Shown piece after piece: positions 6,100-64,000 of a stretch of 64,000 bases of DNA. Below the pieces are notes generated by a model. It did not search any database, was not told where the DNA came from, and saw only the letters and a list, made by a program, of their open reading frames with translations. Origin of the DNA: Escherichia coli phage phiS. The stretch lies in the sequence record PP449093.1. One strand, written 5' to 3'. The position numbers were made by a program, and so were the translations under genes. The first letter of the stretch is position 1. Each line of letters begins with the position of its first letter.

Positions 6100-6387
6100 A
6101 TGTTAGTACACAATGCAATCGCACACATGGTTTATTCTCGATTTGGGCGCAGGGAAGAAATCAATATTACCGACGCAGATTTAGATCTGATGCAAGTCGA
6201 AGGCCAGACATATCTGAAAAATAACGGCGTGAATATCGGTAAAGCGCGTGTGCGTGAATTGTTGGTTGAATATATTCTCTCTGAATTTGGCATTAGTGCT
6301 TTCGGTGTGAAAGAGCTTGCACCTAAGCGCGAAATTTCTGATAAAATGATCAAGAAATGCCAGAAAGCACGACGTAAGGGTTTCTAA
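6100..6387 (+). CDS. Hypothetical protein (95 aa)
   Basis: ATG at 6100 after GAGGAA. Confidence 0.5.
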   Translation: MLVHNAIAHMVYSRFGRREEINITDADLDLMQVEGQTYLKNNGVNIGKARVRELLVEYILSEFGISAFGVKELAPKREISDKMIKKCQKARRKGF

Positions 6388-7856
6388 TGAAGATTGAAAC
6401 ATTAATCGCATTGCCAGCGGCGGGGAAAACTGATGCTATACTTTCCCACGTCCTAGAGACAAAAGAAAAAGCGGTTATTGCTTCGCCATCTCGTGTTTTA
6501 AGTGAACAATCTTACAATAAGTTTAAAAGAATGGGCGGTCGTGCTGTCTTGATCGATAGCACAAGACTAAGAAGCCTTAAGACAGTGCAAGCGTCGATAA
6601 TGCAATCAGTTAAAGACGGTGCTGATGTGATATTCATTACACATACAGCGTTATCTAATATGGAACGTTCAAAAATGTTTGGTGAATATGCTCTTTACAT
6701 TGATGAAGTTCCTCAACTGGTTGAATTTAATGAGTATCCGTTTAAGTCTAATCTTGAACTTATCACGAAGCATTGCGAACCAATCGCCGACGAATCGGAA
6801 TGCCTACAGAACTTAGTTCTAAAAGACTCTGAGAAGGCCGCTATCAAAGAAAAGATAGAAAGTGCAAAGGATGGTACTGATATGATCGATTCTTCTCTTA
6901 GAGGGCTTTATGAGGCGTTATTAGAGAAGAAAATCAACGTTATGGTAAAACATAACGAAGGACACCGGAAGAATGGGTCGAAAATTGTTTTCTTGAACGA
7001 TAACAAACACGGTACGTGGGGAGACTTTAAAAAGGTTACGATAGCATGTGCAAATCTCTTTGATACATATAGTGGGAAGTATCTACGATACTATGCAAAT
7101 TGCGATTTTGTTCCGAGTGCGCTAGAATCCAGACTATATTTCAAAGAGTATAAAAATACAGATAGAGTTAATATCATCCTTATGACGGACTCCGAACGAT
7201 GGTCGCGTCACCAGTCAGAAACAAACAATACCTTTGAACGTCTTGTTGATATGGTTAAAAATGAATGTGGTGATGACTTCATTTATACCGTTAATCGGGA
7301 CCGTGAAGCGTGTACAAATGGTATTGGTGAGCGGATACCTTACGGATCTTATGGTCTTAACTCTTACATTCATCATAAAAATGTTGCTGTGATGTTCAGC
7401 TTTAACCCTCAACGATGGGAGATTGATATTTTAAAAGGTCTTGCTAATAGTTGTGATCTCCCGACAAATGAGTTTTTGAAAGCGCGTCATGTGTCTGATT
7501 ATCTGGAACCAGCATTTCAATTATGTTTGCGTTGTAACCTGAGAGACAACGAGAGCAAGGAGAATGTTAATCTATATGTTCCTGATTGGGCGTTGGTGGA
7601 TTATCTAAAAACGTTTCTACCTAATGCCAATGTAATAACAGACCGAATGATTCCGCTAGAATGTGGTGAGCGTAAAGGGCGAAAATCATTTAAAAAGATG
7701 TTCGACTTTAACGAGCAAGAGAATGCAAGATTTAACGGATTTAAGTACCGCATGAAGAAAAAAGGAAAAACTCTTGATCCGTCTGACGGTGAATCAGTAG
7801 AGATGGTTAGAGTGTGGATAACTAAGCAAAGAAAGTATAATGGCAATGGGGAATAG
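6387..7856 (+). CDS. P-loop NTPase of unknown function (489 aa)
   Basis: Walker A-like LPAAGKT near the N-terminus and Walker B-like ALYIDEV. No assignable family. Confidence 0.65.
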   Translation: MKIETLIALPAAGKTDAILSHVLETKEKAVIASPSRVLSEQSYNKFKRMGGRAVLIDSTRLRSLKTVQASIMQSVKDGADVIFITHTALSNMERSKMFGEYALYIDEVPQLVEFNEYPFKSNLELITKHCEPIADESECLQNLVLKDSEKAAIKEKIESAKDGTDMIDSSLRGLYEALLEKKINVMVKHNEGHRKNGSKIVFLNDNKHGTWGDFKKVTIACANLFDTYSGKYLRYYANCDFVPSALESRLYFKEYKNTDRVNIILMTDSERWSRHQSETNNTFERLVDMVKNECGDDFIYTVNRDREACTNGIGERIPYGSYGLNSYIHHKNVAVMFSFNPQRWEIDILKGLANSCDLPTNEFLKARHVSDYLEPAFQLCLRCNLRDNESKENVNLYVPDWALVDYLKTFLPNANVITDRMIPLECGERKGRKSFKKMFDFNEQENARFNGFKYRMKKKGKTLDPSDGESVEMVRVWITKQRKYNGNGE

Positions 7857-7896: not shown

Positions 7897-8430
7897 GTGT
7901 CTGATTATGTAAACAATAAAGAGCTTTACGAAGAAATTTGCCGTTGGAAACAACGAATTGCAGCCGAAGGTCGGCAAGTGCCAATGAGCGATCAAATTGG
8001 CCTAGCAATTATGCAAATCTCTAAAAATCTATCACGTCGTTTTAACTTTTCTGGTTATAGTCAAACATGGCGCGAAGAAATGATCGACGACGGAATCGAA
8101 GCGGCGGTCAAGGGTTTGATTAATTTTGACGAGACAAAGTATAAAAATCCTCATGCTTACATCACGCAAGCGTGCTTTAATGCTTTTGTACAGCGCATTA
8201 AAAAAGAGAGAACAGCGACAGCCGCAAAATACAAATATTTTGTGCATCATGTATATGACGAACGCGACGCTGATATGTGCCAGATTGCTGATGAGGCATT
8301 CATACAGGACATTTACGATAAAATCAACAACTACGAGGAATCGGTCAATAAACCGAAAGCGCCAAAGGTTGAAGATGTATTGACTGAGGAATTGCCTAGC
8401 CTGGACCAATTTTATGAGATTGAAAATTAA
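7897..8430 (+). CDS. 55: Late-transcription sigma factor gp55
   Basis: [29 protein letters not shown] and YVNNKEL match T4 gp55 as I recall it. GTG start after RBS GCGAGGG. Confidence 0.85.
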
Positions 8431-8647
8431 CATTTCCCGTTTGCTGGAAGAAGCAGAGTTTGAAACTGACCTCGTGCCGTATTTCGCCAAATTATTTTTG
8501 AGAGATTGCGGCGTTCCGGTGATTATCGATCCGTGCAATATCAAATCACCGGATCTTGAGGTCTTGACGGGTACAATCTCACATAGCTATAATGTATCAG
8601 AAGATGAATTTTCTTTAATAATTGATTATATCCCAGAGGTAAAATAA
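8414..8647 (+). CDS. Hypothetical protein (77 aa)
   Basis: ORF from the track, overlapping the end of gene 55. Confidence 0.45.
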
Positions 8648-8648
8648 C

Positions 8649-8936
8649 ATGACTTACGATGAACAGCATGACAAGATTGCAGTGAATGAAGTAGACAAAG
8701 TACAAGCAGAACTAGAGGCTAAAGCCGCTAAGAAAGCGGAAAAGATCTTGCGTAAGAACTCGCGAGAGATTGCACGCCTTAAGCGGTGGGCTGAACAAGC
8801 TATCATCGATGATAACCGTGATGCGTATATCTACGCTATCGGAAAGTTACGTGATATCTACAAACAGCCACACACGCCAGAACTGCTTTCTGCTATGTGG
8901 ATTAGTACACGGCAAACGGTATTAAGTATGCTGTAA
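8649..8936 (+). CDS. Hypothetical protein (95 aa)
   Basis: ORF from the track; charged, helical N-terminus. Confidence 0.5.
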   Translation: MTYDEQHDKIAVNEVDKVQAELEAKAAKKAEKILRKNSREIARLKRWAEQAIIDDNRDAYIYAIGKLRDIYKQPHTPELLSAMWISTRQTVLSML

Positions 8937-9026: not shown

Positions 9027-9581
9027 ATGACAAAATTTAAGTATTGGGATGAAGAACTACAGAGTGAAATAAGGGATCATTTTGCCCATGACGAGAACGG
9101 CATACTCTATCACAAAACTCATAGTATTCATAAGGGTAAATTTGCACCTGGCGATATTGTCAAAACTCATGTAGGGTCACAAAGAGGACATTTATCTATT
9201 TGGTTATATCTAGGAAATGGTGTAAAATATAAATTGTATGTGCATAGGGTTGTTTGGTTTCTTGAGCATGGGTATCAGGTTGCTATAATCGACCATATAG
9301 ACCAAAATGTATTAAACAATGCACCAAGAAATTTAAGAGAAGCCACTAACCAAGAAAATAAAAGAAATCAGGGAAAGATCAAGAATGTAGGCGGAAGATA
9401 TAAGGGCGCATATCGTGCAAGTTCAGCTATGAAGTCTAAACCGTGGATATGTAAAGTCAGAATAGATGGGAAAACAAAACATTTTGGATATTTCGCGACA
9501 GAAGAAGAAGCGGCAAGAAAATATGATGAGGTGGCTAAGACTCTGTATGGAGAGTTTGCCGTTTTAAATTTTCCAGAATAA
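9027..9581 (+). CDS. HNH homing endonuclease with C-terminal AP2 DNA-binding domain (copy A)
   Basis: HNH core HRVVWFLEHGY...IDHIDQN...NLREAT..EN, then AP2-like GKTKHFGYFATEEEAARKYDEVAKTLYGEFAVLNF. It sits where T4 has alpha-gt. Confidence 0.8.
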   Translation: MTKFKYWDEELQSEIRDHFAHDENGILYHKTHSIHKGKFAPGDIVKTHVGSQRGHLSIWLYLGNGVKYKLYVHRVVWFLEHGYQVAIIDHIDQNVLNNAPRNLREATNQENKRNQGKIKNVGGRYKGAYRASSAMKSKPWICKVRIDGKTKHFGYFATEEEAARKYDEVAKTLYGEFAVLNFPE

Positions 9582-9600: not shown

Positions 9601-10626
9601 ATGAAAATTTTGATGTTGGGTGATTTGCACACTGGTATTGGTAATGATGATCCGTGGGTACATGACTATATTCTTGATACCATTAAAAAAGCACTAGATT
9701 ATTCTAAAAAACACAATATTAAGGTATGGATTCAGACAGGGGATTGGTTTGATTGCCGTAAAGCTATTACTCATGCGACGATGAGTTTTAACCGTACTAA
9801 GGTCATCCCGTTACTGGAAGAAGCTGGAATCACCTGTTATGTGACCGTAGGGAACCACGATCTATTCAAACGTCATAAGATCCAGCCTAACGCGCCGCGT
9901 GAAGTGTTAAGCCAGTATGATTGCATTAAGGTTATCGATAAACCAGAAACAGTTACCTTTGATGGGGTATCATTCGACCTGTTCCCGTGGTTTTGTGATG
10001 ACAATAAATCCGAGGTTTTAGAGTTTATTCAAAATTCATTCAGCGAATATTGTGTAGGCCATTGGGAATTGTCCGGCTACTATTTCTATAAAGGGTTAAA
10101 ATCCGAAGGTTATAGCGCGGACTTCCTCAAGAAATACCGTGAAGTGTTTTCCGGTCACTTTCATACTATCAGTGATGGCGGTAACGTAACGTATATTGGC
10201 ACACCATACACACTAACGGCTGGCGACGAAAATGATCCGCGTGGTTTTTGGGTATTCGATACAGATACACACAAAAAGGAGTTTATCCAGAATGACAAAA
10301 CTTATCATGTGCGTATCACTTACCCGTCAGATGATAAAATCGATGTAGAACGCTTTAAAGGGCTTAGTGTGCGCCTAATTGCAACGGTCGCTGATAATGG
10401 GTTAACTAAGTTAGAAAGCGCGTTAGAGGCCGTTGTACACAAGCTAAAAGTGGTCCATAAGCTGGAGAGTAGCGCATCACAGGAAACAGGTGTTATTGAA
10501 GTTAAAAGCACTATTCAGATGGTCTATGAATATCTGGAAGAACAAAACCTAGAACCGGAAGAACTTGCGGCAGTTAAGCGTATCTCCGATGAGCTTTTAG
10601 CCGAAGTAAATAGCGCAAAAAGTTAG
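9601..10626 (+). CDS. 47: Recombination endonuclease subunit gp47 (Mre11-like)
   Basis: MKILMLGDLHTG... and GNHD phosphoesterase motifs; upstream of gene 46 as in T4. Confidence 0.9.
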   Translation: MKILMLGDLHTGIGNDDPWVHDYILDTIKKALDYSKKHNIKVWIQTGDWFDCRKAITHATMSFNRTKVIPLLEEAGITCYVTVGNHDLFKRHKIQPNAPREVLSQYDCIKVIDKPETVTFDGVSFDLFPWFCDDNKSEVLEFIQNSFSEYCVGHWELSGYYFYKGLKSEGYSADFLKKYREVFSGHFHTISDGGNVTYIGTPYTLTAGDENDPRGFWVFDTDTHKKEFIQNDKTYHVRITYPSDDKIDVERFKGLSVRLIATVADNGLTKLESALEAVVHKLKVVHKLESSASQETGVIEVKSTIQMVYEYLEEQNLEPEELAAVKRISDELLAEVNSAKS

Positions 10627-17443: not shown

Positions 17444-17472
17444 TTGACAAACTAGGTCGATTCCCCTATAAT
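17444..17472 (+). promoter_or_regulatory. Sigma70-like promoter upstream of gene 43 (TTGACA, 17 nt, TATAAT)
   Basis: TTGACA and TATAAT in the regA-43 intergenic region. Confidence 0.5.
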
Positions 17473-17504: not shown

Positions 17505-20183
17505 ATGTATTTTCTGTCATGTGAGCGAGTAGGTGATAAGATCTACGAGCGTTATATTGATGATGCTGGACAAGAGCAAGAGCGTTACGTTGAATATACG
17601 CCAACTTTATTTCATCATGCCGCGCCTGGTATGGTTACGAATTATAAAGATATCTATGGCAAGCCTTGCATTGCTAAAAAATTCCCATCTATGAACGAGG
17701 CCAACAAATGGCGTAAAAAGATGGGGGAGATGGGGCAAGAGGCACTAGGGATGGATGATTTTATCATCTCCTATCTGTCCGATACGTATAAAGGAGAGAT
17801 TCGATATGACCGAAATAAAATCCGTGTAGCATGGGTTGATATTGAGGTCACTGCACCTGAATTTCCTAAACCAGAAGAAGCGAAATATCCTATCGATGCA
17901 ATTACGCATTATGATTCCGTACATGATCGTTTCTTTGTATTTGATTTGAAAGGAAAGAACGGTGAAATCTGGGAAGCAAGCAAATCTATTCTTCGACCTG
18001 ATATTGTAGAGCGCGTTGTTTATAACGTCTATGATACAGAAGATGAATTGCTATTAGAATACATCCGATTCTTTGAGGAAAACCGACCAGTTGGCTTCAC
18101 TGGCTGGAACACAGAAACATTCGATATTCCATATATCATTAAGCGTATCAGTAATAAGTTTGGAAGTCGAACGGCAAACCGATTAAGCCCGTGCGGTAAG
18201 ATTAAATCCCGAATCTCACAGGATGATTTTGGCAACGAGCGTGAAGCATTTACGATCATGGGGATCGAAAGCCTTGATTATATTGACCTGTACAAGAAAT
18301 TTAGCTTTACGACTCAACCAACATATGCATTAGATTATGTTGCTGAATATGAGACAGGAATCGGTAAGGTTGATTATGATGGTCCATTAAAGAAATTGCG
18401 TGATGACAACCATCAACTTTACATCGATTATAACATCGGCGACGTTGACCGTGTGCTGGCGATTGATAAAAAGCGTGGTTTTATTGATCTGGTGTATAGC
18501 CTATGTTTCTATGCAAAGATTAAATTTAACCATGTTTATAATCCGATGAAAGTATGGGATGCTATTATCTTCGGATCTCTGAAAGCAGAGGGTAAAGTAG
18601 TACCGGAAAATAAGATACAGCCTAAGCAGACGTATCCAGGCGCATTTGTAAAAGAACCTGTGCCGAATGCTTACCGTTGGATGATGAGCTTCGATCTCAC
18701 GAGTTTGTATCCTTCAATAATTAGGCAGGTAAATATTTCACCCGAAACTATCGCTGGGTCTTTTGATGCTGCACCGATGCACGAGTATATCAATAAAACT
18801 GCACCACGTCCGAGTGATGAGTATTCTTGCTCGCCTAACGGATGGATGTATAGAAAAGATATTCATGGTATCGTACCGATTGAGATTAAAAAGGTATTCG
18901 ATCAGCGTAAGCAGTACAAAAACATGATGTTGGCATGTGATCGCAATGCTGAACTATGTAAAGCGATTCTACACGATGAAAATCATGTTTATGGGGGAAC
19001 CATTAGCTATAGCGTTGAAGTGCGTCACGACTTCGATGAAGCGTTTAAATCGATGCTTTCTGAATTAAGCAAAGATACCTTAGAGAAATTGCTGGAAGAA
19101 TGTAAAGACGAGTCGATCTTGTGCAATACAAACCAGCTTTCTCGAAAAGTTTTGATCAACTCCCTTTATGGTGCGTTGGGGAATCCTAAATTCCGTTTTT
19201 ATGATCTCCGTAACGCTAGTGCGATCACCTTGTTCGGTCAGCTTGCAATTCAGTGGATTGAGCGTAAGATTAACGAATACTTAAACGAGCTTTGCGGAAC
19301 AACCGATTTTGCATATGTTCGTTATTGTGATACTGACTCCGTTTATGTGCTGGTTAACAATGTTGTTGATAAGGTTGGCGGGGAAGATCGTTTCGACGAT
19401 ACCGAAAAACTTGTTGACTTCCTTGATAATTTCGGTAAACATCGGATGGAACCTATTATCGACAAGGGATATCGCGAGTTATGCGAGTACATGAATAACT
19501 ATGAGCACTTGATGTTTATGGACCGCGAGGCAATTGCTGGTCCTCCGTTGAAATCTGCGGGTATCGGTGGATTCTGGACTGGTAAAAAGCGTTATGCTCT
19601 TAATGTTTGGGATATGGAAGGAACGCGCTTTGCTGAACCTAAGCTAAAAATCATGGGCTTGGAAACGCAACGTAGCTCCACCCCGAAAGCATGTCAGAAA
19701 TCACTGAAAGAATGTATTCGCCGTATGTTGCAGGAAGGTGAAGAGTCATTGCAGGAATACTACGGTATTTTTGAGCAAGAATTTAGAAAACTTGACTATC
19801 TTGATGTTGCTGCGGTATCATCTGCAAACAACCTACAGAAATACAGCGATTCAAACGGGTATCCGATTAAGGGTTGTCCGTATGCGGTTAAGAGTGTATT
19901 GTGTTATAATCGTAATGCTCGAAAATTCGGACTAGATCCGATTCGTGAAGGCGAGAAGGTTATGATTGTACCGCTTAAAGATCGAAATCCGTTTGGAGAA
20001 ATCTGTTTTGGTTGGTTGTCCGGTACTCGTATTCCTCCAGAAATTGAATCAGAGGTGTTAAAGTGGTTAGACTGGCCTTTGTTGTTTAATAAGACTTTCG
20101 TCAAACCACTGGAGAACATTACAACGGCTGCAAAGCTGCAATATGAAAAAGTGGCATCTCTTACAGACCTGTTTGACATTTAA
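17505..20183 (+). CDS. 43: DNA polymerase gp43 (family B)
   Basis: ERYIDD...VEY.PT.F, exonuclease motifs and the YCDTDS polymerase motif. Start moved to ATG 17505 after RBS AAGGAG. Confidence 0.95.
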   Translation: MYFLSCERVGDKIYERYIDDAGQEQERYVEYTPTLFHHAAPGMVTNYKDIYGKPCIAKKFPSMNEANKWRKKMGEMGQEALGMDDFIISYLSDTYKGEIRYDRNKIRVAWVDIEVTAPEFPKPEEAKYPIDAITHYDSVHDRFFVFDLKGKNGEIWEASKSILRPDIVERVVYNVYDTEDELLLEYIRFFEENRPVGFTGWNTETFDIPYIIKRISNKFGSRTANRLSPCGKIKSRISQDDFGNEREAFTIMGIESLDYIDLYKKFSFTTQPTYALDYVAEYETGIGKVDYDGPLKKLRDDNHQLYIDYNIGDVDRVLAIDKKRGFIDLVYSLCFYAKIKFNHVYNPMKVWDAIIFGSLKAEGKVVPENKIQPKQTYPGAFVKEPVPNAYRWMMSFDLTSLYPSIIRQVNISPETIAGSFDAAPMHEYINKTAPRPSDEYSCSPNGWMYRKDIHGIVPIEIKKVFDQRKQYKNMMLACDRNAELCKAILHDENHVYGGTISYSVEVRHDFDEAFKSMLSELSKDTLEKLLEECKDESILCNTNQLSRKVLINSLYGALGNPKFRFYDLRNASAITLFGQLAIQWIERKINEYLNELCGTTDFAYVRYCDTDSVYVLVNNVVDKVGGEDRFDDTEKLVDFLDNFGKHRMEPIIDKGYRELCEYMNNYEHLMFMDREAIAGPPLKSAGIGGFWTGKKRYALNVWDMEGTRFAEPKLKIMGLETQRSSTPKACQKSLKECIRRMLQEGEESLQEYYGIFEQEFRKLDYLDVAAVSSANNLQKYSDSNGYPIKGCPYAVKSVLCYNRNARKFGLDPIREGEKVMIVPLKDRNPFGEICFGWLSGTRIPPEIESEVLKWLDWPLLFNKTFVKPLENITTAAKLQYEKVASLTDLFDI

Positions 20184-20244
20184 GATAAAGTGTGTATAAT
20201 GGCGGGTGTTGGGTGACGATACCCGCCAATGTGAGAAATATATT

Positions 20245-20433
20245 ATGAGAGACATTGAAAAGATTAAACGTGAACGTGAGGAAGGCATAGAGTATTTCAA
20301 GAAAGTTCACGGAAATCACAGCAACGAAGTATTTGTGACGATCAATGTTGATGCGATGAAAAAGTTAATTCAAGAGCACTACAAAGATCGAATAACAATG
20401 AAGCAATTAAAGTATTACGGATTAACTGAATAG
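20245..20433 (+). CDS. Hypothetical protein (62 aa)
   Basis: The only ORF between 43 and uvsX. It is not membrane-like, so it is not an Imm homolog. Confidence 0.4.
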   Translation: MRDIEKIKREREEGIEYFKKVHGNHSNEVFVTINVDAMKKLIQEHYKDRITMKQLKYYGLTE

Positions 20434-20444
20434 AGGTATTAATA

Positions 20445-21515
20445 ATGTCTGTACTGGAAAAACTGAAAAAGAACTCTACCCTGAAAACTACTGCGGTACT
20501 GTCTAAATCCAGCTTCTTTAACGAAAAAACAAATACTCGCACTAAGATCCCGATGCTGAATATTGCGTTTTCAGGTGATCTTAAAAAGGGCTTTCAATCT
20601 GGTCTGATTTTCTTTGCTGGTCCGTCTAAGCACTTTAAATCAAACATGGGATTAACTTGTGTTAGTGCATACATGAAACAGAATCCTGATGCGGCGTGTT
20701 TGTTCTTTGATTCTGAGTTCGGTATTACACCAGCTTATCTGGAATCTATGGGCGTAGATCCTGATCGCGTAGTGCATGTTCCAATCAAGAACATCGAAGA
20801 ACTTAAATTTGAAATCATGAACCAGCTTGAGCAAATTACCCGTGAAGATAAAGTGATCATCTTTATTGACTCAATTGGTAACTTAGCAAGTAAAAAAGAA
20901 GTTGAAGACGCGATTAATGAGAAATCCGCACAGGATATGACGCGAGCGAAAGCACTTAAAGGCTTGTTCCGTATGGTTACGCCGTATCTGACTATGAATG
21001 ATATCCCGTGCATCGCTATTAACCACACTTACGAAACGCAAGAAATGTTTAGTAAGACCGTTATGTCCGGCGGTACGGGCGCGATGTACAGCGCGAATGA
21101 AGTTTTTATTATCGGTCGTCGCCAGCAGAAAGAAGGTACAGAGTTGACTGGTTATGAGTTTATATTGAAGGCCGATAAGTCACGAACTGTTAAAGAAGGG
21201 TCGAAGTTCCCGATTGATGTAACGTTTAGCGGTGGTATTAACCCATATTCCGGTTTACTGGATCTCGCAATCGAGCTTGGGTGGGTCGTCAGCCCGTCGA
21301 AAGGTTGGTATTCTCGTTCCATTCTGAATACTGAAACAGGAGAAATGGAAACAGAAGAACGCAAGTTCCGTGCTAAAGAAACTAATAGTGTTGATTTTTG
21401 GAGACCGCTTCTGACTAATGATAAGTTTAACGAAGCGATTAACGAACACTATCAGCTGGGTCAAGTTATAAGCGATGAGGCAGTTGACAAAGAAGTCGAA
21501 GATATGTTAGCATAA
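20445..21515 (+). CDS. uvsX: Recombinase UvsX (RecA-like)
   Basis: KIPMLNIAFSGD...AGPSKHFKSN...CLFFDSEFGITPAY...INHTYETQEMFSKTVM match T4 UvsX as I recall it. Confidence 0.95.
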   Translation: MSVLEKLKKNSTLKTTAVLSKSSFFNEKTNTRTKIPMLNIAFSGDLKKGFQSGLIFFAGPSKHFKSNMGLTCVSAYMKQNPDAACLFFDSEFGITPAYLESMGVDPDRVVHVPIKNIEELKFEIMNQLEQITREDKVIIFIDSIGNLASKKEVEDAINEKSAQDMTRAKALKGLFRMVTPYLTMNDIPCIAINHTYETQEMFSKTVMSGGTGAMYSANEVFIIGRRQQKEGTELTGYEFILKADKSRTVKEGSKFPIDVTFSGGINPYSGLLDLAIELGWVVSPSKGWYSRSILNTETGEMETEERKFRAKETNSVDFWRPLLTNDKFNEAINEHYQLGQVISDEAVDKEVEDMLA

Positions 21516-21570: not shown

Positions 21571-21888
21571 ATGGATAAGAAACCAACAAGTTTAGAAGAA
21601 GCACACAGCTTGATTCAAGAAGCAATGAAGACAGTTATCCAGGAACTGATAATTGTTGATGAAGAGGGAGAACATCATATTGTCTATATTCATAATGTTG
21701 AATACGATCCAGACACTAAAGGTATTGTGGTCGACTACTCCACGCCGTCAGATCGTGATGTGGTATATCCACACGTCATTAAGGCGTTAACCGCGCAGAT
21801 CAAAGAAGCAGAAGAAAAGTTGAAAAAAGAAACTTTCTGGTATAAACTCAAGACCTTTGTTATGCGTGTAGTTGGGGGCTATGTATGA
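21571..21888 (+). CDS. Hypothetical protein in the gene-40 position
   Basis: 105-aa ORF between uvsX and 41, identified by synteny only. Confidence 0.4.
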   Translation: MDKKPTSLEEAHSLIQEAMKTVIQELIIVDEEGEHHIVYIHNVEYDPDTKGIVVDYSTPSDRDVVYPHVIKALTAQIKEAEEKLKKETFWYKLKTFVMRVVGGYV

Positions 21889-23297
21889 TTAAAACTATCT
21901 TTTCACAGTTGATTTACAATGGCGCATTCTTTACGAATGTATGGCCTCACCTTAAAGCGGACTACTTCACCGAAGACGAAGAAAAACTGATTTATAAGCT
22001 GATTAAAAAGCACGTAGACGAATATTCCAATATTCCTACGCCAACTGCATTACAGATTGCTTTAGACAAGGAGAGAGGCAATCAGAAAACATATGAAGGG
22101 GCTAAAACTCTTCTTGATTCGCTTGAGAATACACCGGAAGACCTTGATTGGTTAATGAAGGAAACCGAAAAATTTATTCGTGACCGTGCCATGTATAATG
22201 CAATGTCACGGGCGCTAGAGATTCAGGCGAACGCACAACTACCAAAAGAGAAACAGAATAAGAAATTGCCGAGTGAGGGAGCTATTCCTGAGATCATGCA
22301 GGAAGCACTATCCATTACGTTTGATTCTGATGTAGGTCATGACTGGTTTAATGACTTTGAAAAACGATTCCTGTTATATCAGACTAAGGCGAATAAGATC
22401 CCATTTAAGCTGCCGATGTTGAATAAAATCACGAAAGGAGGGGCGGAAAGAAAAACGCTAAATGTGTTGCTTGCTGGTGTAAACGTTGGCAAATCGCTTG
22501 GACTGTGTTCTCTTGCTGCGGATTATATGGAATGTGGTTATGATGTATTGTATATCTCAATGGAGATGGCAGAGCATGTAGTAGCAAAACGTATCGACGC
22601 AAACTTGCTTGACATTACATTAGATGAATTGGATAATGGTAATGTTTCTTTTGCGGAATATTCCGCACGCATGAAGCGTGTTAAGAATAAGAAGATCGGA
22701 GATCGTCCGGTTGGAAAATTGATGATCAAGCAGTATCCGACTGGTGGCGCGAACTCCAATCACTTTGAGGCGCTAATGAATGAATTGCGCCTCAAGAAAC
22801 AGTTTAAACCTGATGTTGTGATTGTTGACTATCTGGGGATTTGCGCATCGTCTCGCTTGCGTGTATACTCTGAGAATAGCTATACTCTAGTTAAAGCGAT
22901 TGCGGAAGAACTGCGAGGATTTTTTGTTAAGTGGGATGTTGTTGGTTGGACTGCGGCACAGACTACCCGCGCGGGTTGGGACGCTTCCGACCTTAACATG
23001 AGTGATACCGCTGAATCAGCAGGTCTTCCGGCTACTGCCGACTTTATGTTGGGTGTTATCGAAACCGAAGACCTGGCTAAAATGGGCGTCCAACTCATGA
23101 AGCAGATCAAGTCTCGTTACGGTGATAAGAACTATTATTCACGGTTTAACGTTGGTGTGAAGAAAGGCAATCAGCGTTGGTATGAAGTACCAAACCAGAT
23201 CGCAGATCAGGAGAATGCACAAGTTAAACCACAAAGCGCACAGCAAGCCGAGAAACGAGAAAAACTCGACGAGCTAGCAAATAACATGACTTTCTAA
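21885..23297 (+). CDS. 41: Replicative DNA helicase gp41 (DnaB-like)
   Basis: The N-terminus resembles T4 gp41; Walker A GVNVGKS; RecA-like C-terminal domain. Confidence 0.9.
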   Translation: MIKTIFSQLIYNGAFFTNVWPHLKADYFTEDEEKLIYKLIKKHVDEYSNIPTPTALQIALDKERGNQKTYEGAKTLLDSLENTPEDLDWLMKETEKFIRDRAMYNAMSRALEIQANAQLPKEKQNKKLPSEGAIPEIMQEALSITFDSDVGHDWFNDFEKRFLLYQTKANKIPFKLPMLNKITKGGAERKTLNVLLAGVNVGKSLGLCSLAADYMECGYDVLYISMEMAEHVVAKRIDANLLDITLDELDNGNVSFAEYSARMKRVKNKKIGDRPVGKLMIKQYPTGGANSNHFEALMNELRLKKQFKPDVVIVDYLGICASSRLRVYSENSYTLVKAIAEELRGFFVKWDVVGWTAAQTTRAGWDASDLNMSDTAESAGLPATADFMLGVIETEDLAKMGVQLMKQIKSRYGDKNYYSRFNVGVKKGNQRWYEVPNQIADQENAQVKPQSAQQAEKREKLDELANNMTF

Positions 23298-25970: not shown

Positions 25971-26534
25971 GTGAGGGTAAGGAAAGCCAAAGAATGGAGA
26001 GATGAATTAAAGGATGAAATACGTCGAAGATATAGACACGAAAGGGGTATATTGATTCATAAAACAAACAGCAAAGCAAGCCGAACGACGAAAGAAGGCC
26101 AGTTTTATAAGGTTGGTGATATAGTAAAGGTATCTAAAGTCACAGCCGGACACCTAAAAGTCTCATTTTCTTTTGAAGGAAAACAATATTTTGAGCTTGT
26201 GCATAGAATAGTATTCTTCTTAGAGCATGGGTATTGCCCACCTGTCATTGACCATATTGACGGGAATCCAGAAAACAACGATCCTCCAAACTTAAGAGAG
26301 GCGACACAAAAACAGAATACCCAAAATATGAGAAGAAATAACCAAACTAAAACTAGCAATTTTAAAGGAGTGCATTATAATAGTCGTTCGGGTAAATGGG
26401 TCGCCCAGATAAGGGACAATGAAGGAAATAAAGTCTATATAGGACAATTTGACCTAGAAATAGACGCCGCAATAGTATATAATGACTATGCGTATAAGTA
26501 TCACGGTGAATTTGCAGTGTTTAATGTTATTTGA
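25971..26534 (+). CDS. HNH homing endonuclease with AP2 domain (copy B)
   Basis: VHRIVFFLEHGY...IDHIDGNPENN...NLREAT, then AP2-like KGVHYN...GKWVAQI...YIGQFDLEIDAAIVYNDYAYKYHGEFA. GTG start. Confidence 0.8.
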   Translation: MRVRKAKEWRDELKDEIRRRYRHERGILIHKTNSKASRTTKEGQFYKVGDIVKVSKVTAGHLKVSFSFEGKQYFELVHRIVFFLEHGYCPPVIDHIDGNPENNDPPNLREATQKQNTQNMRRNNQTKTSNFKGVHYNSRSGKWVAQIRDNEGNKVYIGQFDLEIDAAIVYNDYAYKYHGEFAVFNVI

Positions 26535-26544
26535 GAGGTTTATT

Positions 26545-27063
26545 ATGAGTGAATTTAATTCTTGTGCTGGTCTTGTTAATGATGAAACTATGTCTAAAGC
26601 TGGTATTGCGTATTCCGAGGCAATCACTAGCGGTAAAGATCCGCTGCAAGTAATGTTAGATATGCAAAAAGGATTGCAGGTCGCACTAGCTGATAAATTT
26701 GAGTGGGTAATGCATCCTGATAAGCTGGAAACTTGCGGGGAGATCCTTGACTGGATGAAGTTGTGGGATGACGCAATCGACGACGAGACACGAGAACTTT
26801 ATGTTGCCCTGGGTGGCATGTCAAATGGCAAAGATGCAAGCGCAATTACTAAAGTGTGGAAGAAGAACCACGGCGAAGCACGAGCGCGTAAATTTGCTGA
26901 TCTGTCAGATGACGATAAAACCGAAATTGCGATGGAATTGATCGATATCTGGCATTTTGTGCTGATTAAAATGCTGGGCTTAGGTTTAACCGCTAAGGAT
27001 ATCTTCAAGCTGTACTATCTGAAAAATGCTGAAAACTTCGCCCGTCAAGAACGCGGCTACTAA
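26545..27063 (+). CDS. 56: MazG-like nucleotide pyrophosphohydrolase, probable gp56 dCTPase homolog
   Basis: PLQVMLDMQ...HPDKLET...FKLYYLKNAENFARQERGY fits my recollection of T4 gp56. Position between 61 and dda. Confidence 0.6.
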   Translation: MSEFNSCAGLVNDETMSKAGIAYSEAITSGKDPLQVMLDMQKGLQVALADKFEWVMHPDKLETCGEILDWMKLWDDAIDDETRELYVALGGMSNGKDASAITKVWKKNHGEARARKFADLSDDDKTEIAMELIDIWHFVLIKMLGLGLTAKDIFKLYYLKNAENFARQERGY

Positions 27064-31531: not shown

Positions 31532-32071
31532 ATGGGCGATTTGGAATTATATGAATATCTCCACGAAAGATACTACTACGAAAACGGTAGGCTATTTTTC
31601 AAAAAGGATTTAAAGAATCAGATTAAAGCTGGCGATGAAGCCGGAAACCAATTGACAAAATATGCCGAGGATGGCAGTATCATGTGGAGTCGATGGGTCA
31701 TGAAGGTCAACCGAAAACATTTTTATCGGGCGACCGTTATATGGGTGATGTTTAACAAACAATTACCGCCTAAAGGTTTTGAGGTCGACCATATTGACAG
31801 AAACTCATTAAATGATAAAATAGAAAACCTTCGATTGGTGACTCGAACCAACAACGTAAGAAACCGAGGGAAGATGAGAAAGAATCCTTCGTCAAAATAT
31901 ATTGGCGTTTGTTGGAACAAGTCACATAAGAAATGGGTTGCTAGGATAGGTGGTTATAAGCGCGTATACTTAGGATCATTTAAAGACGAAAAAGAGGCTG
32001 CATTGGCCTATGATAAAGCCGTTAAAGAACTTCATGGAGAATTTGCGGTTTTAAATTTCCCAAATGACTGA
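31532..32071 (+). CDS. HNH homing endonuclease with AP2 domain (copy C)
   Basis: VDHIDRNSLNDKIENLRLVTRTNN, then AP2-like YIGVCWNKSHKKWVARIGG...YLGSFKDEKEAALAYDKAVKELHGEFAVLNF. Confidence 0.8.
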   Translation: MGDLELYEYLHERYYYENGRLFFKKDLKNQIKAGDEAGNQLTKYAEDGSIMWSRWVMKVNRKHFYRATVIWVMFNKQLPPKGFEVDHIDRNSLNDKIENLRLVTRTNNVRNRGKMRKNPSSKYIGVCWNKSHKKWVARIGGYKRVYLGSFKDEKEAALAYDKAVKELHGEFAVLNFPND

Positions 32072-46558: not shown

Positions 46559-46622
46559 AGCCGTTTCTCCTTAGTAGTTTCCCTTCCGTGGGAGTTTTCC
46601 TTAATTCTTTTTATAATTAAGT

Positions 46623-47405
46623 CTAAACAGCCGGTCCGTAAATGGCTCCGCGATTTTGCCACGTTGGGGCAGACCCTATAACAGCATAACCGGCATCGCC
46701 GCCATTGTATTCATATCCTTGACCACGAATATTACATCTACCTCCTGCGGCGCCTACCTCACCACCGCTTCCGCCATTATAGACATCGTTCATGGACCCC
46801 GAACCAGGCGCATAAAGAGTACCAGCAGTTGCGCCTGATTGCATGTTGGCAGATCCACCAGCAGCACCAAACGGACGACCGCCGCCACCACCAAAAGTTA
46901 ATTTCATTGGTTTCGTAGGAGAATAATACCCACCACCTCCACCGCCACCGCCGCCAGCGATAGCACCGCCATTATTAATTCTTAGCCTCCCACCAATATC
47001 ATTTTGAATACAATGACCCCCAGCTGATCCAGGACTATTGCTACCGCCATTCCCTCCACGACCATACATCGTTACGCCATGTATATTCAACTGAACATAT
47101 TCATTCGGTGTATCTCCATACATAAAGAATAAAGGAACATCTTTAGAATATGATACTAAATCTCCAGTGATATTAAACACTATAGGTGTACTACCTGCCT
47201 CAAAGCATCTATCACGGAACCACTGACCATTGAAGTTATGGTCTGCTCCAAGTGTATGAATAATTTCTCGCGAGCGACCTGCAAATTGACTCATCCAGCA
47301 AGGAACACCCAATCTTAATTGACCAGCCGCTTGACTCATCCATCGTTGTCCTGTTTCATTTACGGATGAACTACCAATCCAACCAGGAACACCAACTACT
47401 GCCAT
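46623..47405 (-). CDS. 38: Receptor-recognising adhesin gp38 (T2-type, glycine-rich motifs)
   Basis: Poly-Gly segments [12 protein letters not shown] and [15 protein letters not shown] typical of T2-like gp38; follows gene 37. Confidence 0.8.
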
Positions 47406-47441
47406 AATTTATACTCCAAAGGGGGCATTGCCCCCTTGTTG

Positions 47442-61128: not shown

Positions 61129-61156
61129 TTGACATGCTGATGTTAGGATGTATAAT
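61129..61156 (+). promoter_or_regulatory. Early promoter (TTGACA, 16 nt, TATAAT) with CATCGAAACAAAGGAGGA leader
   Basis: Near-identical cassette to the one at 62420. Confidence 0.5.
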
Positions 61157-61186
61157 ACAAACATCGAAACAAAGGAGGATAAAAAT

Positions 61187-62431
61187 ATGAAAACTTACTT
61201 TGCAAAAGATGTTTGTTATATTATCAAAAATAAATCCGTCTCAAAAACACCAGAACATTACGAGAATCTCTCAATAAGTTATGCATTGTCTCATGGTTTC
61301 GTTTATTTGGGGTTTATTGGAGAATATTCTGGATGCCAAACCCTGTCAAATTTTGAATGTAAAAGACATGGAACGTTTGCGGTCAGAGTAAAAAATCTAA
61401 ATCATGCTAAACATGGTTGCCCAAACTGTGCCCTTGAGAATAGGGCAGAAAAAAGAAAATTGAGTATAGAAAAGATTTATAACGACATAAATCGAATCTG
61501 TGATGAGAACGGAACCATAGAATTAACAGAAATTAAAGGTGGGTATAAAACAACAAAAACACGAAATTTATTTTTTAAATGTAAATTGTGTAATGGCATG
61601 TTTAATACATCACATGATCATTTAAAACGAGGTCAAGCATGTCCAAAATGTCGGTATAAAAAAATTTCTGTGTGTAATACTAGAAACCAACTTGATATTG
61701 AACTTGACATAAAAATAGAATGTAAAAAAAGAAAAACCGTTGAATTTGTAGAATTTGAAAATGGATATTGCAGATACAAGTCAAAAAATTTAATAATGAG
61801 ATGTTTGCGTGGACACGGAAATTACACAACAACAGCAAACGACTTTTTTAAGGGATGTGGTTGTCCTACATGCGGAGGAACGAAAAGACTAACAGAAAAA
61901 CAAGCATCTGAACAAATGATAAAAGAGTGTGAAATTAGAGGTTATGATTTTTTGGGATTTTTTAATGGGTATAAAAAGTCGGCAGAACCTAATGCAAAAT
62001 TAAAATGTAAACGCAGCGGGGTAAGTTTTTATACATCACACAACAATTTTATGAAAGGACAAAACTGTAAGTGTTGCTCTGAATTTGGATATAGAACAAC
62101 GAAATCTGGTGTTTTCTATGTACAGAAACTGTTAGAAAATAATATTTTTTGTGGTGTTAAATTTGGTGTAACCAATAGAACAACAAAAGAACGAATTGGA
62201 GGTCAATCTCGCCTTTCCAAATTCGACCACGAGATCTTTTATGAACTTACTTTACAAGACGGTCAAAAGATCTTAGACTTAGAGAACAAGATCAAGGAAG
62301 CGATGAAAGGTAAAACTTCCTATATCTCAAAAGAAGATATGCCGGATGGCTACACAGAGACAGTAGCACCGTCCGAATTGAGCACTATCATGTATATCGT
62401 AAAATCTTTTGAAAAAGAGTTGACAAAGTAA
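61187..62431 (+). CDS. Zinc-finger-repeat protein with C-terminal GIY-YIG / T5orf172-like motif; putative free-standing homing endonuclease
   Basis: Repeated CxxC modules (GCPNCA, CKLCNG, ACPKC, GCPTCGG) and C-terminal GVFYVQKLLENNIFCGVKFGVTNRTTKER. Inserted between 32 and frd. Confidence 0.55.
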   Translation: MKTYFAKDVCYIIKNKSVSKTPEHYENLSISYALSHGFVYLGFIGEYSGCQTLSNFECKRHGTFAVRVKNLNHAKHGCPNCALENRAEKRKLSIEKIYNDINRICDENGTIELTEIKGGYKTTKTRNLFFKCKLCNGMFNTSHDHLKRGQACPKCRYKKISVCNTRNQLDIELDIKIECKKRKTVEFVEFENGYCRYKSKNLIMRCLRGHGNYTTTANDFFKGCGCPTCGGTKRLTEKQASEQMIKECEIRGYDFLGFFNGYKKSAEPNAKLKCKRSGVSFYTSHNNFMKGQNCKCCSEFGYRTTKSGVFYVQKLLENNIFCGVKFGVTNRTTKERIGGQSRLSKFDHEIFYELTLQDGQKILDLENKIKEAMKGKTSYISKEDMPDGYTETVAPSELSTIMYIVKSFEKELTK

Positions 62432-63497: not shown

Positions 63498-63766
63498 TGA
63501 AAGTCGGTATTATTCAATTATGGACGGCTACCAGTGAAAACTACGCAGTAGCCGTAGATTATTACGGGTTACAATATCTCTATGATGAAGCTAAAGCGTC
63601 ATGGCTTCCAGTACAGGAAAATAGCGACATTTCAAGACCTGTTACTGTATTCGATCCTGGAGTTGTCTTTATCGATATTGACGAGACAGTAGCAAAACTG
63701 CGTAAGAAAGCAATCAACAAGAAAAAGGTGATGTGGGATGAAAGAATATTTGAAACTGTTGCGTGA
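63497..63766 (+). CDS. Hypothetical protein (89 aa)
   Basis: ATGA overlap with the upstream stop; start moved from the track's 63470. Confidence 0.45.
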   Translation: MKVGIIQLWTATSENYAVAVDYYGLQYLYDEAKASWLPVQENSDISRPVTVFDPGVVFIDIDETVAKLRKKAINKKKVMWDERIFETVA

Positions 63767-64000
63767 TGTTCTTGATAATGGCTGGCCTCGTGAAGACCGA
63801 ACTGGGGTAGGTACGCTCTCTAAATTCGGCGCAGAGATGCGAATTGATTTAAGCAAGGGTTTCCCATTACTGACCACTAAAAAGATGGCTACAGCCTCTG
63901 TAATTGGCGAATTGCTATGGTTTATGGAGGGATCACTTGACCGCCGTCGCTTACAGGAAATTACACGCGGCAAGTTTGACGAAGAAGCCTTCGACATTTG
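63738..64000 (+). CDS. td: Thymidylate synthase, N-terminal fragment (continues beyond window)
   Basis: MKEYLKLLRDVLDNGWPREDRTGVGTLSKFGAEMRIDLSKGFPLLTTKKM is a ThyA N-terminus; follows frd as in T4. Confidence 0.85.
   Translation, partial: MKEYLKLLRDVLDNGWPREDRTGVGTLSKFGAEMRIDLSKGFPLLTTKKMATASVIGELLWFMEGSLDRRRLQEITRGKFDEEAFDI

Follow-up and report, generated by a model that had tools for sequence, protein, structure and literature searches.

Gene 43 and uvsX, encoding the DNA polymerase and a recombinase, lie only 261 bp apart (20184–20444) in Escherichia coli phage phiS. The window, meaning the whole 64-kb stretch of phiS DNA analysed here, belongs to an RB49-type coliphage of the genus Krischvirus. 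Its best match is phage PHB13; nucleotide identity to RB49-type phages is 96–98% over a 7-kb segment around the 43–uvsX junction, and the window is collinear with RB49, in blocks of 88–98% identity over most of the 64 kb. About 3 kb of the distal tail-fibre region (about 46.6–49.8 kb) is diverged and largely unalignable to RB49. The features at the junction are the following.

17444–17472, + strand: sigma-70 promoter upstream of gene 43 (TTGACA-17-TATAAT, 12/12; a hypothetical early promoter in RB49), the upstream promoter-early stem-loop (PeSL) of a flanking pair
17505–20183, + strand: gene 43, family B DNA polymerase (Pfam DNA_pol_B, PF00136, and DNA_pol_B_exo1, PF03104; 55% identity to T4 gp43, tblastn E=0; RB49 annotation)
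20173–20200, + strand: sigma-70 promoter of a PeSL (TTGACA-16-TATAAT, 12/12; annotated in RB49 as a hypothetical early promoter)
20200–20228, + strand: PeSL stem-loop with a 12-bp stem (GGCGGGTGTTGG/..ACCCGCC), G-run/C-run, and a 5-nt loop
20245–20433, + strand: ORF62, RB49p025 homologue, predicted small hydrophilic early protein (phrog_12120, unknown function, E=2e-40)
20445–21515, + strand: uvsX recombinase (Pfam T4_UVSX_C, PF21134, and RecA, PF00154; 63% identity to T4 UvsX)
21571–23297, + strand: genes 40 (21571–21888) and 41 (21885–23297), in the same order as in T4 (Pfam Phage_head_chap; RB49 annotation)

In T4, the corresponding interval carries imm.1, imm, 42, b-gt and segA in 3635 bp. 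The earlier note, made from the phiS sequence, had correctly placed imm, 42 and beta-gt there, and its 260-bp interval with one 62-aa ORF is the 261-bp interval described here, which consists of a perfect sigma-70 promoter, a strong hairpin and ORF62. The stop codon of gene 43 is TAA (20181–20183), and the -35 hexamer of the promoter falls inside the last codons of that gene. Perfect 12/12 promoter matches occur ten times on the + strand of the window and never on the - strand, with about 0.04 expected. As RNA, the hairpin folds at -24.7 kcal/mol (z=-5.7), and none of 200 shuffled sequences was as stable. It has no U-tract and is not called as an intrinsic terminator, nor was a terminator-like site found in 19800–20800. 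Known RNA families and tRNAs were searched for across the window and none was detected, the interval giving sub-threshold noise only.

In RB49, a PeSL lies on either side of gene 43; PeSL promoters are active, the stem-loops terminate transcription in reporter assays, and PeSL copies recombine with one another (Arbiol 2010). Judged by its sequence, the 261-bp interval of phiS is one of these known cassettes. Its hairpin is likely to be an attenuator or a 3'-end stabiliser of gene 43 transcripts: it may attenuate read-through from gene 43, a terminator role being suggested by other PeSLs and not by a U-tract, or it may shield the 3' end of the mRNA. The promoter at 20173 would restart early transcription into ORF62 and uvsX. 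Because the ATG of uvsX (20445) is only 11 nt past the stop codon of ORF62 and has a GAGG Shine-Dalgarno sequence, uvsX is probably co-transcribed with ORF62, which would thus be read together with uvsX-40-41.

The 62-aa product of ORF62 has a conserved FKKxHGNHS core. The earlier description of it as soluble is borne out by a GRAVY of -0.96, 39% charged residues and the absence of a hydrophobic segment; its maximum Kyte-Doolittle 15-residue mean is 0.86, versus 2.85 for T4 Imm. ORF62 was considered as a stand-in for Imm and rejected, as Imm is a membrane protein while ORF62 is strongly hydrophilic and has no membrane segment. It has no Pfam match, and PHROGs places it in a family of unknown function only. 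ORF62 occurs in 58 Krischvirus genomes with an identity of at least 90% (95–99% in 57 of the 58), and a search of 5.8 billion proteins returned Krischvirus copies only. An exhaustive HMMER search of 1.84 billion proteins gave seven representatives of the family, all 60–77 aa long and unannotated; the gene context of the homologue in Salmonella phage Akira is uninformative. The AlphaFold model is helical and of low confidence (pLDDT 59).

The short gap between gene 43 and uvsX is the normal layout of the genus and has already been published. A 311-bp sequence spanning the junction is found with full coverage and at least 95.8% identity in all 58 Krischvirus database records, among which UvsX identity is at least 80%, falling to about 65% beyond them. 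A sister lineage placed between Krischvirus and Tevenvirinae, which would polarise gain versus loss of the T4-type cassette, was sought in the phage collection and not found.

When T4 proteins were compared by tblastn with the window and the complete RB49 genome, no homologue was found of imm.1, imm, b-gt, a-gt, segA, alc, denB, arn, ipI or ndd, and the sole match to gp42 (E=0.006) lies in td. Further searches covered every six-frame ORF of the window and of the complete RB49, PHB13 and SAP genomes, with profile HMMs (built from four gp42, two beta-alpha-gt and two beta-gt proteins, and from imm and imm.1) and, for T4 alpha-gt, alc and denB, with single-sequence phmmer. Only td was matched, at 28–29 bits, by the gp42 profile. 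The search for gene 42 and glucosyltransferase homologues that the earlier note had proposed thus turned up none in the window or in these three relatives. A match between a Dhakavirus sugar-isomerase-like protein and RB49p049 (E=0.028, 12 bits) was dismissed as chance, RB49p049 being empty in Pfam. The absences of the RB49 type are tabulated in Petrov 2010 (Table 4), and Krischvirus is scored as 56+, hmC-, denB-, denA+, ndd- and alc- (Viruses 2025, Table 4); denA is indeed present in RB49.

Two further sites in the window bear on the modification genes: the junction of genes 55 and 47, where T4 has alpha-gt, and the junction of genes 61 and 56.

7897–8430, + strand: gene 55, late sigma factor (61% identity to T4 gp55, E=2e-68)
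8414–8936, + strand: homologues of a-gt.5 and a-gt.4, small ORFs preceding alpha-gt in T4 (tblastn E=6e-8 and 1e-12; RB49 annotation)
9027–9581, + strand: free-standing HNH-AP2 homing-type endonuclease gene (Pfam HNH_3, PF13392, E=9e-12, and AP2, PF00847; phrog_99)
9601–10626, + strand: gene 47, recombination nuclease subunit (56% identity to T4 gp47, E=2e-115)
25971–26534, + strand: second HNH-AP2 endonuclease gene, between 61 and 56 (Pfam HNH_3, E=9e-14, and AP2; alignment break relative to RB49; SAP annotation)
26545–27063, + strand: gene 56 homologue, dCTPase/dUTPase family, all-alpha NTP pyrophosphatase (51% identity to T4 gp56, E=9e-54)
31532–32071: third HNH-AP2 copy (homology by BLASTP)

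The HNH endonuclease that had been reported at the alpha-gt position is the HNH_3 and AP2 gene at 9027–9581. It occupies the position of mobB and alpha-gt in T4, and no alpha-gt accompanies it; in T4 itself, mobB, an HNH gene, adjoins alpha-gt. At the 55–47 site an HNH gene is found in the window and in RB49 and is missing in PHB13 and SAP, where the gap measures 90 bp, while at the 61–56 site it is found in the window and in SAP and is missing in RB49 and PHB13. Since the gene is missing from the 55–47 site of PHB13 and SAP, and since its product is only 47% identical to the RB49 allele (RB49p040), its sequence marks it as an optional mobile gene, and no replacement for alpha-gt. The ORF at 25971–26534, which follows directly after gene 61, is the second HNH-AP2 endonuclease and not gp56.

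The 56-like dCTPase that had been noticed is present as the gp56 homologue at 26545–27063, which scores 197 bits against the gp56 profile and has weak Pfam matches to dUTPase_2 and PRA-PH; among solved structures, none was significantly related to gp56. The td product of RB49 retains the catalytic Cys, and in GLPFNVASY it still has the Asn that corresponds to an Asp in gp42. This Asn is specific for dUMP, so that td is a dUMP enzyme, and the idea of a disguised dCMP hydroxymethylase was rejected. The gp56 homologue may, together with cd, td and frd, feed dUMP/dTMP synthesis and keep dUTP out of DNA instead of excluding dCTP. An odd insertion of ~135 aa is carried by the td of RB49.

The chemistry of close relatives and the composition of the window both bear on the state of cytosine. 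HpaII and NheI both digest RB49 DNA, indicating unmodified cytosine; DNA of the Krischvirus TB34 contains canonical nucleosides only by HPLC-MS, and TB34 is restricted by BREX. The window contains no copy of 23 of the 64 palindromic hexamers, for which a Markov model predicts 170 occurrences in total; of the non-palindromic hexamers, only 0.8% are missing. Palindromes containing G and C have an O/E of 0.56, versus 0.89–0.93 in T4, whereas those of A and T only stand at 0.90; the difference between the window and size-matched T4 DNA is significant (Wilcoxon, p=4.5e-6). GGCC, AGCT, CCWGG and CCSGG are depleted in Krischvirus and not in T4, and GATC shows the opposite pattern, being not avoided in Krischvirus (O/E 1.03–1.06) and rare in T4 (0.33). 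SAP shows the same palindrome avoidance as RB49. A literature search found no report of palindrome avoidance for RB49 or Krischvirus. This depletion is new supporting evidence, and it argues for exposed cytosine.

It is very probable, therefore, that the phiS lineage lacks the hydroxymethylcytosine system of T4 (no 42, alpha-gt, beta-gt, alc, denB, arn or ipI, and no imm) and replicates with ordinary cytosine, the junction being occupied by a PeSL cassette. As there is no hmC system in the lineage, 43 and uvsX are almost adjacent. For phiS itself, unmodified cytosine is suggested by the chemistry of RB49 and TB34 in combination with the absent genes and the palindromes, and the genes are predicted from close relatives to be absent also from the about 100 kb outside the window. 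Escape from type II restriction would come mainly from the loss of GC-containing palindromic sites and not from base modification. What counts against this explanation is the retention of gp56 and denA, whose T4 counterparts are directed against dCTP or cytosine DNA. The earlier note had offered two options, genes located elsewhere or a different strategy of cytosine modification. The first finds no support in RB49, PHB13 or SAP, and the second holds only loosely, in the sense of site avoidance; the best-supported answer, no blanket cytosine modification, was not among them.

The window covers 64 kb of about 165 kb, gp56 is kept, and gp1, cd and denA are kept in relatives, all of which would suit a simple rearrangement, with 42, imm and the glucosyltransferase genes located beyond the window and T4-like glucosyl-hmC in the DNA. 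This is close to refuted, and we give it hardly any credence: neither tblastn nor profiles detect a homologue in complete RB49, in SAP or in PHB13, whose UvsX is 100% identical to that of the window. Moreover, the sole thymidylate-synthase-family gene is a td of the dUMP type, alc and denB, expected alongside hmC, are missing, surveys across the genus record no gene 42 for Krischvirus, enzymes sensitive to cytosine modification cut RB49 DNA, and strong palindrome avoidance, which T4 does not show, would be pointless on glucosyl-hmC DNA. A different challenge comes from SAP, a Krischvirus whose DNA preparation was reported to contain 5-hmdC and glucosylated or gentiobiosylated derivatives with no known pathway, at about one-third 5-hmdC and two-thirds gentiobiosyl-methyl-dC, and which is sensitive to the modification-dependent enzyme BrxU (AEM 2026). 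If that DNA preparation was pure, some Krischvirus isolates would make sugar-decorated cytosines of the hmC type without homologues of gp42 or of known glucosyltransferases, and many Krischvirus ORFs without known function are available for such a route; ORF62, the kept gp56 and other unannotated ORFs would then be its candidates. Yet seven Tequatrovirus phages from the collection that includes SAP share its modification profile, and SAP DNA was the least digested by BrxU (AEM 2026). RB49 and TB34 are unmodified, and SAP itself lacks gp42 and glucosyltransferase homologues and avoids palindromes as RB49 does. The genomes of SAP and unmodified TB34 are effectively identical: 40 of their 47 indel differences are in homopolymers and would put essential genes out of frame, and each of the 14 SNPs hits the middle base of a CCSGG site. 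The differences look like artefacts, and so provide no genetic basis for a difference in modification. The SAP data would fit a mixed or mislabelled DNA preparation, and cryptic hypermodification is accordingly very unlikely.

The same table of differences raises another possibility, namely that bulk cytosine is unmodified and particular motifs (e.g. CCSGG, or an adenine motif around GGTCTA) are methylated by the phages' own orphan methyltransferases besides Dam. Nanopore errors at Dcm sites (CCWGG) were considered for the SNPs and refuted (0/14, all being at CCSGG). The discrepancies follow motifs strictly, the SNPs being at the CCSGG centre in 14 of 14 cases and the indels outside homopolymers at GTCTA/TAGAC in 7 of 7, which is the error type of unmodelled methylation if TB34 was basecalled from long reads. 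RB49 encodes Dam (PF02086), the amino-methyltransferase-like RB49p143 (MTS/Eco57I/N6_Mtase) and a third annotated methyltransferase without a Pfam match, and the lack of GATC avoidance in Krischvirus, as against T4, agrees with methylation of this kind. On the other hand, the SNPs touch only 14 of 32 CCSGG sites, natural C/T polymorphism exists at several of these positions in PHB13 and RB49, and a true mutational hot spot or a modification-independent basecaller confusion would explain the pattern equally well. CCSGG is also strongly avoided, which speaks against its protection, and the methyltransferase genes all lie outside the window. No C5-cytosine methyltransferase domain was found in the RB49 methyltransferases; the suggestion that the extra ones are C5-cytosine enzymes has no support, their domains being adenine- or amino-methyltransferase-like or absent. 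Sparse motif methylation of this sort is unlikely, and replication with ordinary cytosine is preferred.

Much of this was already known for the RB49 type: the absence of 42, alpha-gt, beta-gt, alc and denB, the unmodified cytosine and the PeSLs around gene 43 are in the literature of 2002–2010 and were reconfirmed in 2014, 2025 and 2026. Read again, the SAP/TB34 differences weaken the sole published hint of modification in Krischvirus, which a contaminating T-even phage might explain. Krischvirus phages can be attacked by ordinary restriction, by BREX and by CRISPR targeting, and they can transduce host DNA, which bears on the choice of therapeutic phages. The contrast in palindrome avoidance with T4 could serve as a quick predictor of bulk cytosine modification in T4-like phages that needs only a sequence.

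Avoidance of restriction sites (palindromes) in phages with unmodified DNA is reportedly general, and is said to have been described by Sharp in 1986, Rocha in 2001 and Rusinov in 2018. The window shows the same selective loss of GC-containing palindromes of 4–6 bp, with non-palindromic words unaffected, and the contrast with T4 inside one family is unusually clean.

The closest known genomes are those of RB49, phi1 and JSE (Krischvirus, 'pseudo-T-even'), with the same gene order, the same 43-ORF62-uvsX junction including the annotated early promoter, and the same sets of genes present (56, denA, cd, td, frd, 1, dam) and absent (42, a-gt, b-gt, imm, alc, denB, arn, ndd, motA, asiA). Relative to RB49, the window has two additional HNH-AP2 genes (25971–26534 and 31532–32071), a divergent HNH allele at 9027–9581, and an RB49p240-like protein that differs in repeat number. 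These genes match free-standing HNH-AP2 homing endonuclease genes in their domains and in their presence/absence polymorphism at conserved junctions, homing itself being predicted from sequence. The PeSL cassettes of RB49 and phi1 (Arbiol et al. 2010; Comeau et al. 2014) combine a near-perfect TTGACA-N16/17-TATAAT with an adjacent G-run/C-run hairpin, as here, and are intergenic and directly 5' of a small ORFan that has a Shine-Dalgarno sequence and an ATG of its own, again as here, where ORF62 starts 17 nt past the hairpin. The hairpin of phiS differs in lying just downstream of the -10 box, the commonest reported positions being between the boxes or over the -10. A further criterion for PeSLs is an AT-rich tract 5' of the -35 box; in phiS the 30 nt at this place are gene 43 coding sequence of average AT content (60%, as in the genome).

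The T4-type modification cassette (imm.1-imm-42-b-gt-segA) holds the same position, bounded by the orthologous 43 and uvsX-40-41, and in T4, Jiaodavirus, Karamvirus and Dhakavirus gene 42 and the sugar-transfer genes all sit between 43 and uvsX. Among the Tevenvirinae examined, this interval spans ~2.7–5 kb, with 3,635 bp in T4, as opposed to 261 bp with an unrelated 62-aa ORF in the window. Pseudotevenvirus (RB43-type; Citrobacter phage Maroon) is also without 42, denB and alc, keeps 56 and denA, and has gene 43 adjoining uvsX; in Maroon the gap is 79 bp with no ORF, and its UvsX is only 56% identical to that of the window. The 43–uvsX junction may thus be the landing site of the modification cassette in Tevenvirinae, empty or nearly so where gene 42 is missing.

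The short junction between genes 43 and uvsX in the window is the normal, published organization of RB49-type phages, and is already known. The interval is 261 bp long and holds a single ORF, compared with 3,635 bp in T4, where imm.1, imm, 42, beta-gt and segA are found. The earlier note had set the T4 order against a short interval with one soluble 62-aa ORF, and that description holds. The features at the junction are:

Gene 43 (family B polymerase), ending at 20183; 55% identical to T4 gp43
20173–20200, + strand: perfect promoter (TTGACA-16-TATAAT), with its −35 box within the last codons of gene 43
20200–20228: hairpin with a 12-bp stem (GGCGGG...CCCGCC), −24.7 kcal/mol, z = −5.7
20245–20433, + strand: ORF62, the 62-aa ORF (homologue of RB49p025); GRAVY −0.96, 39% charged residues, no hydrophobic stretch
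uvsX, starting at 20445; 63% identical to T4 UvsX
17444–17472: promoter upstream of gene 43, the partner of that at 20173

The hairpin lies 17 nt before the start of ORF62, and the ORF62 stop is 11 nt from uvsX, which has a GAGG ribosome-binding site; no terminator-like site occurs between the two genes. The RB49 annotation carries the same promoter as that at 20173–20200, and the interval shares its anatomy with the promoter-early stem-loop (PeSL) cassettes of RB49 and phi1; Arbiol et al. (2010) describe a PeSL on either side of gene 43. The hairpin may attenuate or terminate transcripts coming out of gene 43, or shield their 3′ ends, while the promoter would begin early transcription anew into ORF62-uvsX-40-41. 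Perfect consensus promoters (TTGACA-N16-18-TATAAT) number ten on the + (early-transcribed) strand of the window, against about 0.04 expected; the − strand has none. The ten lie at:

1463, 17444, 20173, 33916, 34899, 36857, 57689, 60049, 61129 and 62420, + strand

The consensus promoters and hairpins across the window are the PeSL family of RB49-type phages. G-run/C-run hairpins are seen in or around several of the promoters (e.g. 2608, 10627, 33916, 34285).

ORF62 is kept in 58 Krischvirus genomes with at least 90% identity (95–99% in 57 of them). It falls into phrog_12120 (unknown function); Pfam yields no match. Its family has only 7 representatives among 1.84 billion proteins, all of 60–77 aa and with a common FKKxHGNHS core in which His-Gly is invariant. 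The structure model is helical, at low confidence. Homologues are small hypothetical genes of 45–49-kb Salmonella and Klebsiella phages. A role as an analogue of Imm was considered and rejected, as ORF62 is hydrophilic and lacks a membrane segment and Imm is a membrane protein.

A 7-kb segment around the junction matches 58 phage records (at least 80% of its length, 90–99% identity), 56 of them with at least 95% identity; every one is an RB49-type coliphage (genus Krischvirus). The closest is vB_EcoM_PHB13 (98.0%), with a UvsX 100% identical to that of the window; RB49 follows at 96.6%. Window and RB49 are collinear, beginning within nrdD and running through 43, uvsX, 41, 61, 56, dda, 39, rIIA, rIIB and 52; the tail-fibre genes, rnh, 32, frd and the first part of td follow. 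Its G+C content is about 40%, and it contains no tRNA genes and no Rfam families. The distal tail-fibre/adhesin region (46613–49822, − strand genes) resembles RB49 weakly or not at all at the nucleotide level. A zinc-ribbon-repeat protein (61148–62431, + strand), homologous to the RB49p240 ‘endonuclease’ (45% identity), has fewer repeats (427 vs 485 aa). Between 55.2 and 55 (6387–7856, + strand) lies a conserved 489-aa protein of unknown function (RB49p044 homologue, phrog_2467) with a weak N-terminal DEAD/DEAH helicase match (E = 3e-6); nothing corresponds to it at this place in T4.

Gene absence was assessed in the complete genomes of close relatives, the phage's own genome being seen only within the window. 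When 33 T4 proteins were compared by tblastn with the complete RB49 genome, homologues were found for 43, uvsX, 40, 55, 47, 56, dam, denA, 1, cd, frd, tk, nrdC, a-gt.4 and a-gt.5, and none for imm.1, imm, beta-gt, alpha-gt, segA, mobB, alc, denB, arn, ipI, ndd, motA or asiA. The sole gp42 match (E = 0.006) falls within td. Profile HMMs of gp42, beta-alpha-gt, beta-gt, imm and imm.1 from T4, Jiaodavirus KP179, Karamvirus myPSH1140 and Dhakavirus Bp7, together with single-sequence phmmer queries (T4 alpha-gt, alc, denB), were run against all six-frame ORFs of the window, RB49, PHB13 and SAP, with gp56 as positive control. Only td was matched (28–29 bits), apart from the control and a chance-level match with a Dhakavirus isomerase-like protein (E = 0.028, 12 bits), which was rejected. 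The complete genomes of RB49, PHB13 and SAP thus hold no homologue of gene 42 or the glucosyltransferases at another locus. The guide sequence for the td comparison was E. coli ThyA. RB49 td is a thymidylate synthase and not a hydroxymethylase: its catalytic cysteine is preserved, as is the Asn in GLPFNVASY, which is Asp in gp42. The window holds only the start of this gene:

About 63738–64000, + strand: td, cut by the window end (RB49 counterpart 136870–138102)

The Krischvirus enzyme has 410 aa. Compared with E. coli ThyA and T4 Td, it has about 135 extra aa inserted behind the initial ~115 residues; its catalytic motifs are intact.

Published data bear on both genes and DNA. Petrov et al. 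(2010, Table 4) confine 42, denB and alc to T-even, JS98, RB69, CC31, Acinetobacter and 44RR-type phages, with 56 and denA almost universal, and a 2025 survey scores Krischvirus as positive for 56 and denA and negative for hydroxymethylcytosine (hmC), denB, ndd and alc. RB49 lacks hydroxymethylase and beta-glucosyltransferase, and its DNA is cleaved by HpaII and NheI while that of T4 is not (Yaung et al. 2014). Krischvirus TB34 has no modified nucleosides by HPLC-MS and is subject to BREX restriction. The finding is therefore a rediscovery of a documented genus property. The earlier note had offered genes located elsewhere or a different modification; its reading gains partial support, in that the underlying facts stand but neither favoured alternative includes ‘no modification’. 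A hidden, unconventional way of modifying cytosine in Krischvirus is very improbable.

Word counts, with expectations from a maximal-order Markov model, show that the window lacks 23 of the 64 palindromic hexamers (170 occurrences expected in total), compared with 6 of 64 in 64 kb of T4; of the non-palindromic hexamers, the window lacks only 0.8%. Absent words include AAGCTT (16.1 expected), GAATTC (15.2), GGATCC (12.7), TCCGGA (26.6) and AGCGCT (12.3), and the missing sites include those of EcoRI, HindIII, BamHI, PstI, KpnI, NcoI, XhoI, SacI, SacII, SphI and ScaI. Observed/expected (O/E) ratios of GC-containing palindromes are 0.56 in the window, 0.62 in RB49 and 0.89–0.93 in T4 (window vs size-matched T4, Wilcoxon p = 4.5e-6), while AT-only palindromes are at ~0.9 in both Krischvirus sequences and 0.92–1.0 in T4. 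In Krischvirus, GGCC, AGCT, CCWGG and CCSGG fall 1.4- to 4-fold short of expectation; in T4 they do not. Such selection against type II sites is expected of DNA with exposed cytosines, and would make little sense for glucosyl-hmC DNA. In whole-genome 4-mer counts GATC has an O/E of 1.03–1.06 in Krischvirus and 0.33 (three-fold depleted) in T4, Dam being encoded by both. The avoidance extends over the whole window (1–64000) and is also noted in the RB49, PHB13 and SAP genomes. Restriction-site avoidance is a well-known general phenomenon; a literature search found no report of palindrome avoidance for RB49. Besides Dam, RB49 has two annotated ‘DNA methyltransferases’ outside the window (74465–75304 and 115890–116606), one of MTS/Eco57I/N6_Mtase type and one without a Pfam match.

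The position of alpha-gt between 55 and 47 is occupied by an HNH gene, as had been noted. The window has three such HNH-AP2 genes, which are paralogous (35–47% pairwise identity):

9027–9581, + strand: a-gt.4/47 junction (HNH_3 + AP2)
25971–26534, + strand: 61/56 junction
31532–32071, + strand: upstream of gene 39

The second is the ORF directly 3′ of gene 61, which is thus not gp56; the 56-like gene reported earlier, a gp56 homologue, is present at 26545–27063 (51% identity to T4 gp56, E = 9e-54). In the 55–47 stretch, a-gt.5 and a-gt.4 homologues precede the HNH gene, where T4 has a-gt.3, a-gt.2, mobB, a-gt and 47.1. The window and RB49 alleles at this site are only 47% identical, and PHB13 and SAP have just a 90-bp gap. 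The second and third copies are not in RB49; the 61–56 copy is in SAP. Presence thus varies among Krischvirus isolates, at conserved gene junctions, and Petrov (2010) tabulates homing-type HNH genes for RB49 and JSE. Judged from gene content, they appear to be optional, mobile homing-type genes; replacement of alpha-gt is rejected, the gene being variable between relatives.

A 2026 paper (PMC13390438) reports that DNA of SAP, a Krischvirus isolate 99.96% identical to unmodified TB34, contains 5-hmdC along with gentiobiosylated derivatives; its authors found no pathway. The differences (its Table S5) were placed in the sequence context of the SAP genome (OZ034687, Illumina). Of the 47 indels, 40 change a homopolymer by one base and would frameshift polymerase, UvsX, clamp, gp47, NrdB and topoisomerase, and the other seven are all at GTCTA/TAGAC. 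The 14 SNPs, without exception C>T or G>A, hit the middle base of CCSGG and affect 14 of its 32 sites; RB49 matches SAP at 12 of the 14. These motif-locked differences could be sparse methylation by the orphan methyltransferases that Krischvirus encodes, real hot-spot mutation (PHB13 varies at several of these sites), or basecalling artefacts. The two genomes are effectively identical, so that no genetic difference can encode the modification, and the profile search found no gp42 or glucosyltransferase homologue in SAP. The simplest reading would be a mixed or mislabelled SAP DNA preparation: the modification profile of SAP equals the one seen in seven T-even-type phages from that collection, and BrxU cut SAP DNA least (PMC13390438).

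All four Tevenvirinae genera examined (Tequatrovirus, Jiaodavirus, Karamvirus, Dhakavirus) have gene 42 and lineage-specific sugar-transfer genes at the 43–uvsX junction. The cassette may have been gained in Tevenvirinae or lost in the other lineages; no lineage intermediate between these and Krischvirus was found in the phage collection. Pseudotevenvirus, like Krischvirus, is without gene 42, with 79 bp separating 43 and uvsX, while in KVP40-like phages the neighbours of uvsX differ. In this comparison of genera, the junction thus houses the modification cassette when there is one; otherwise it is empty or nearly so.
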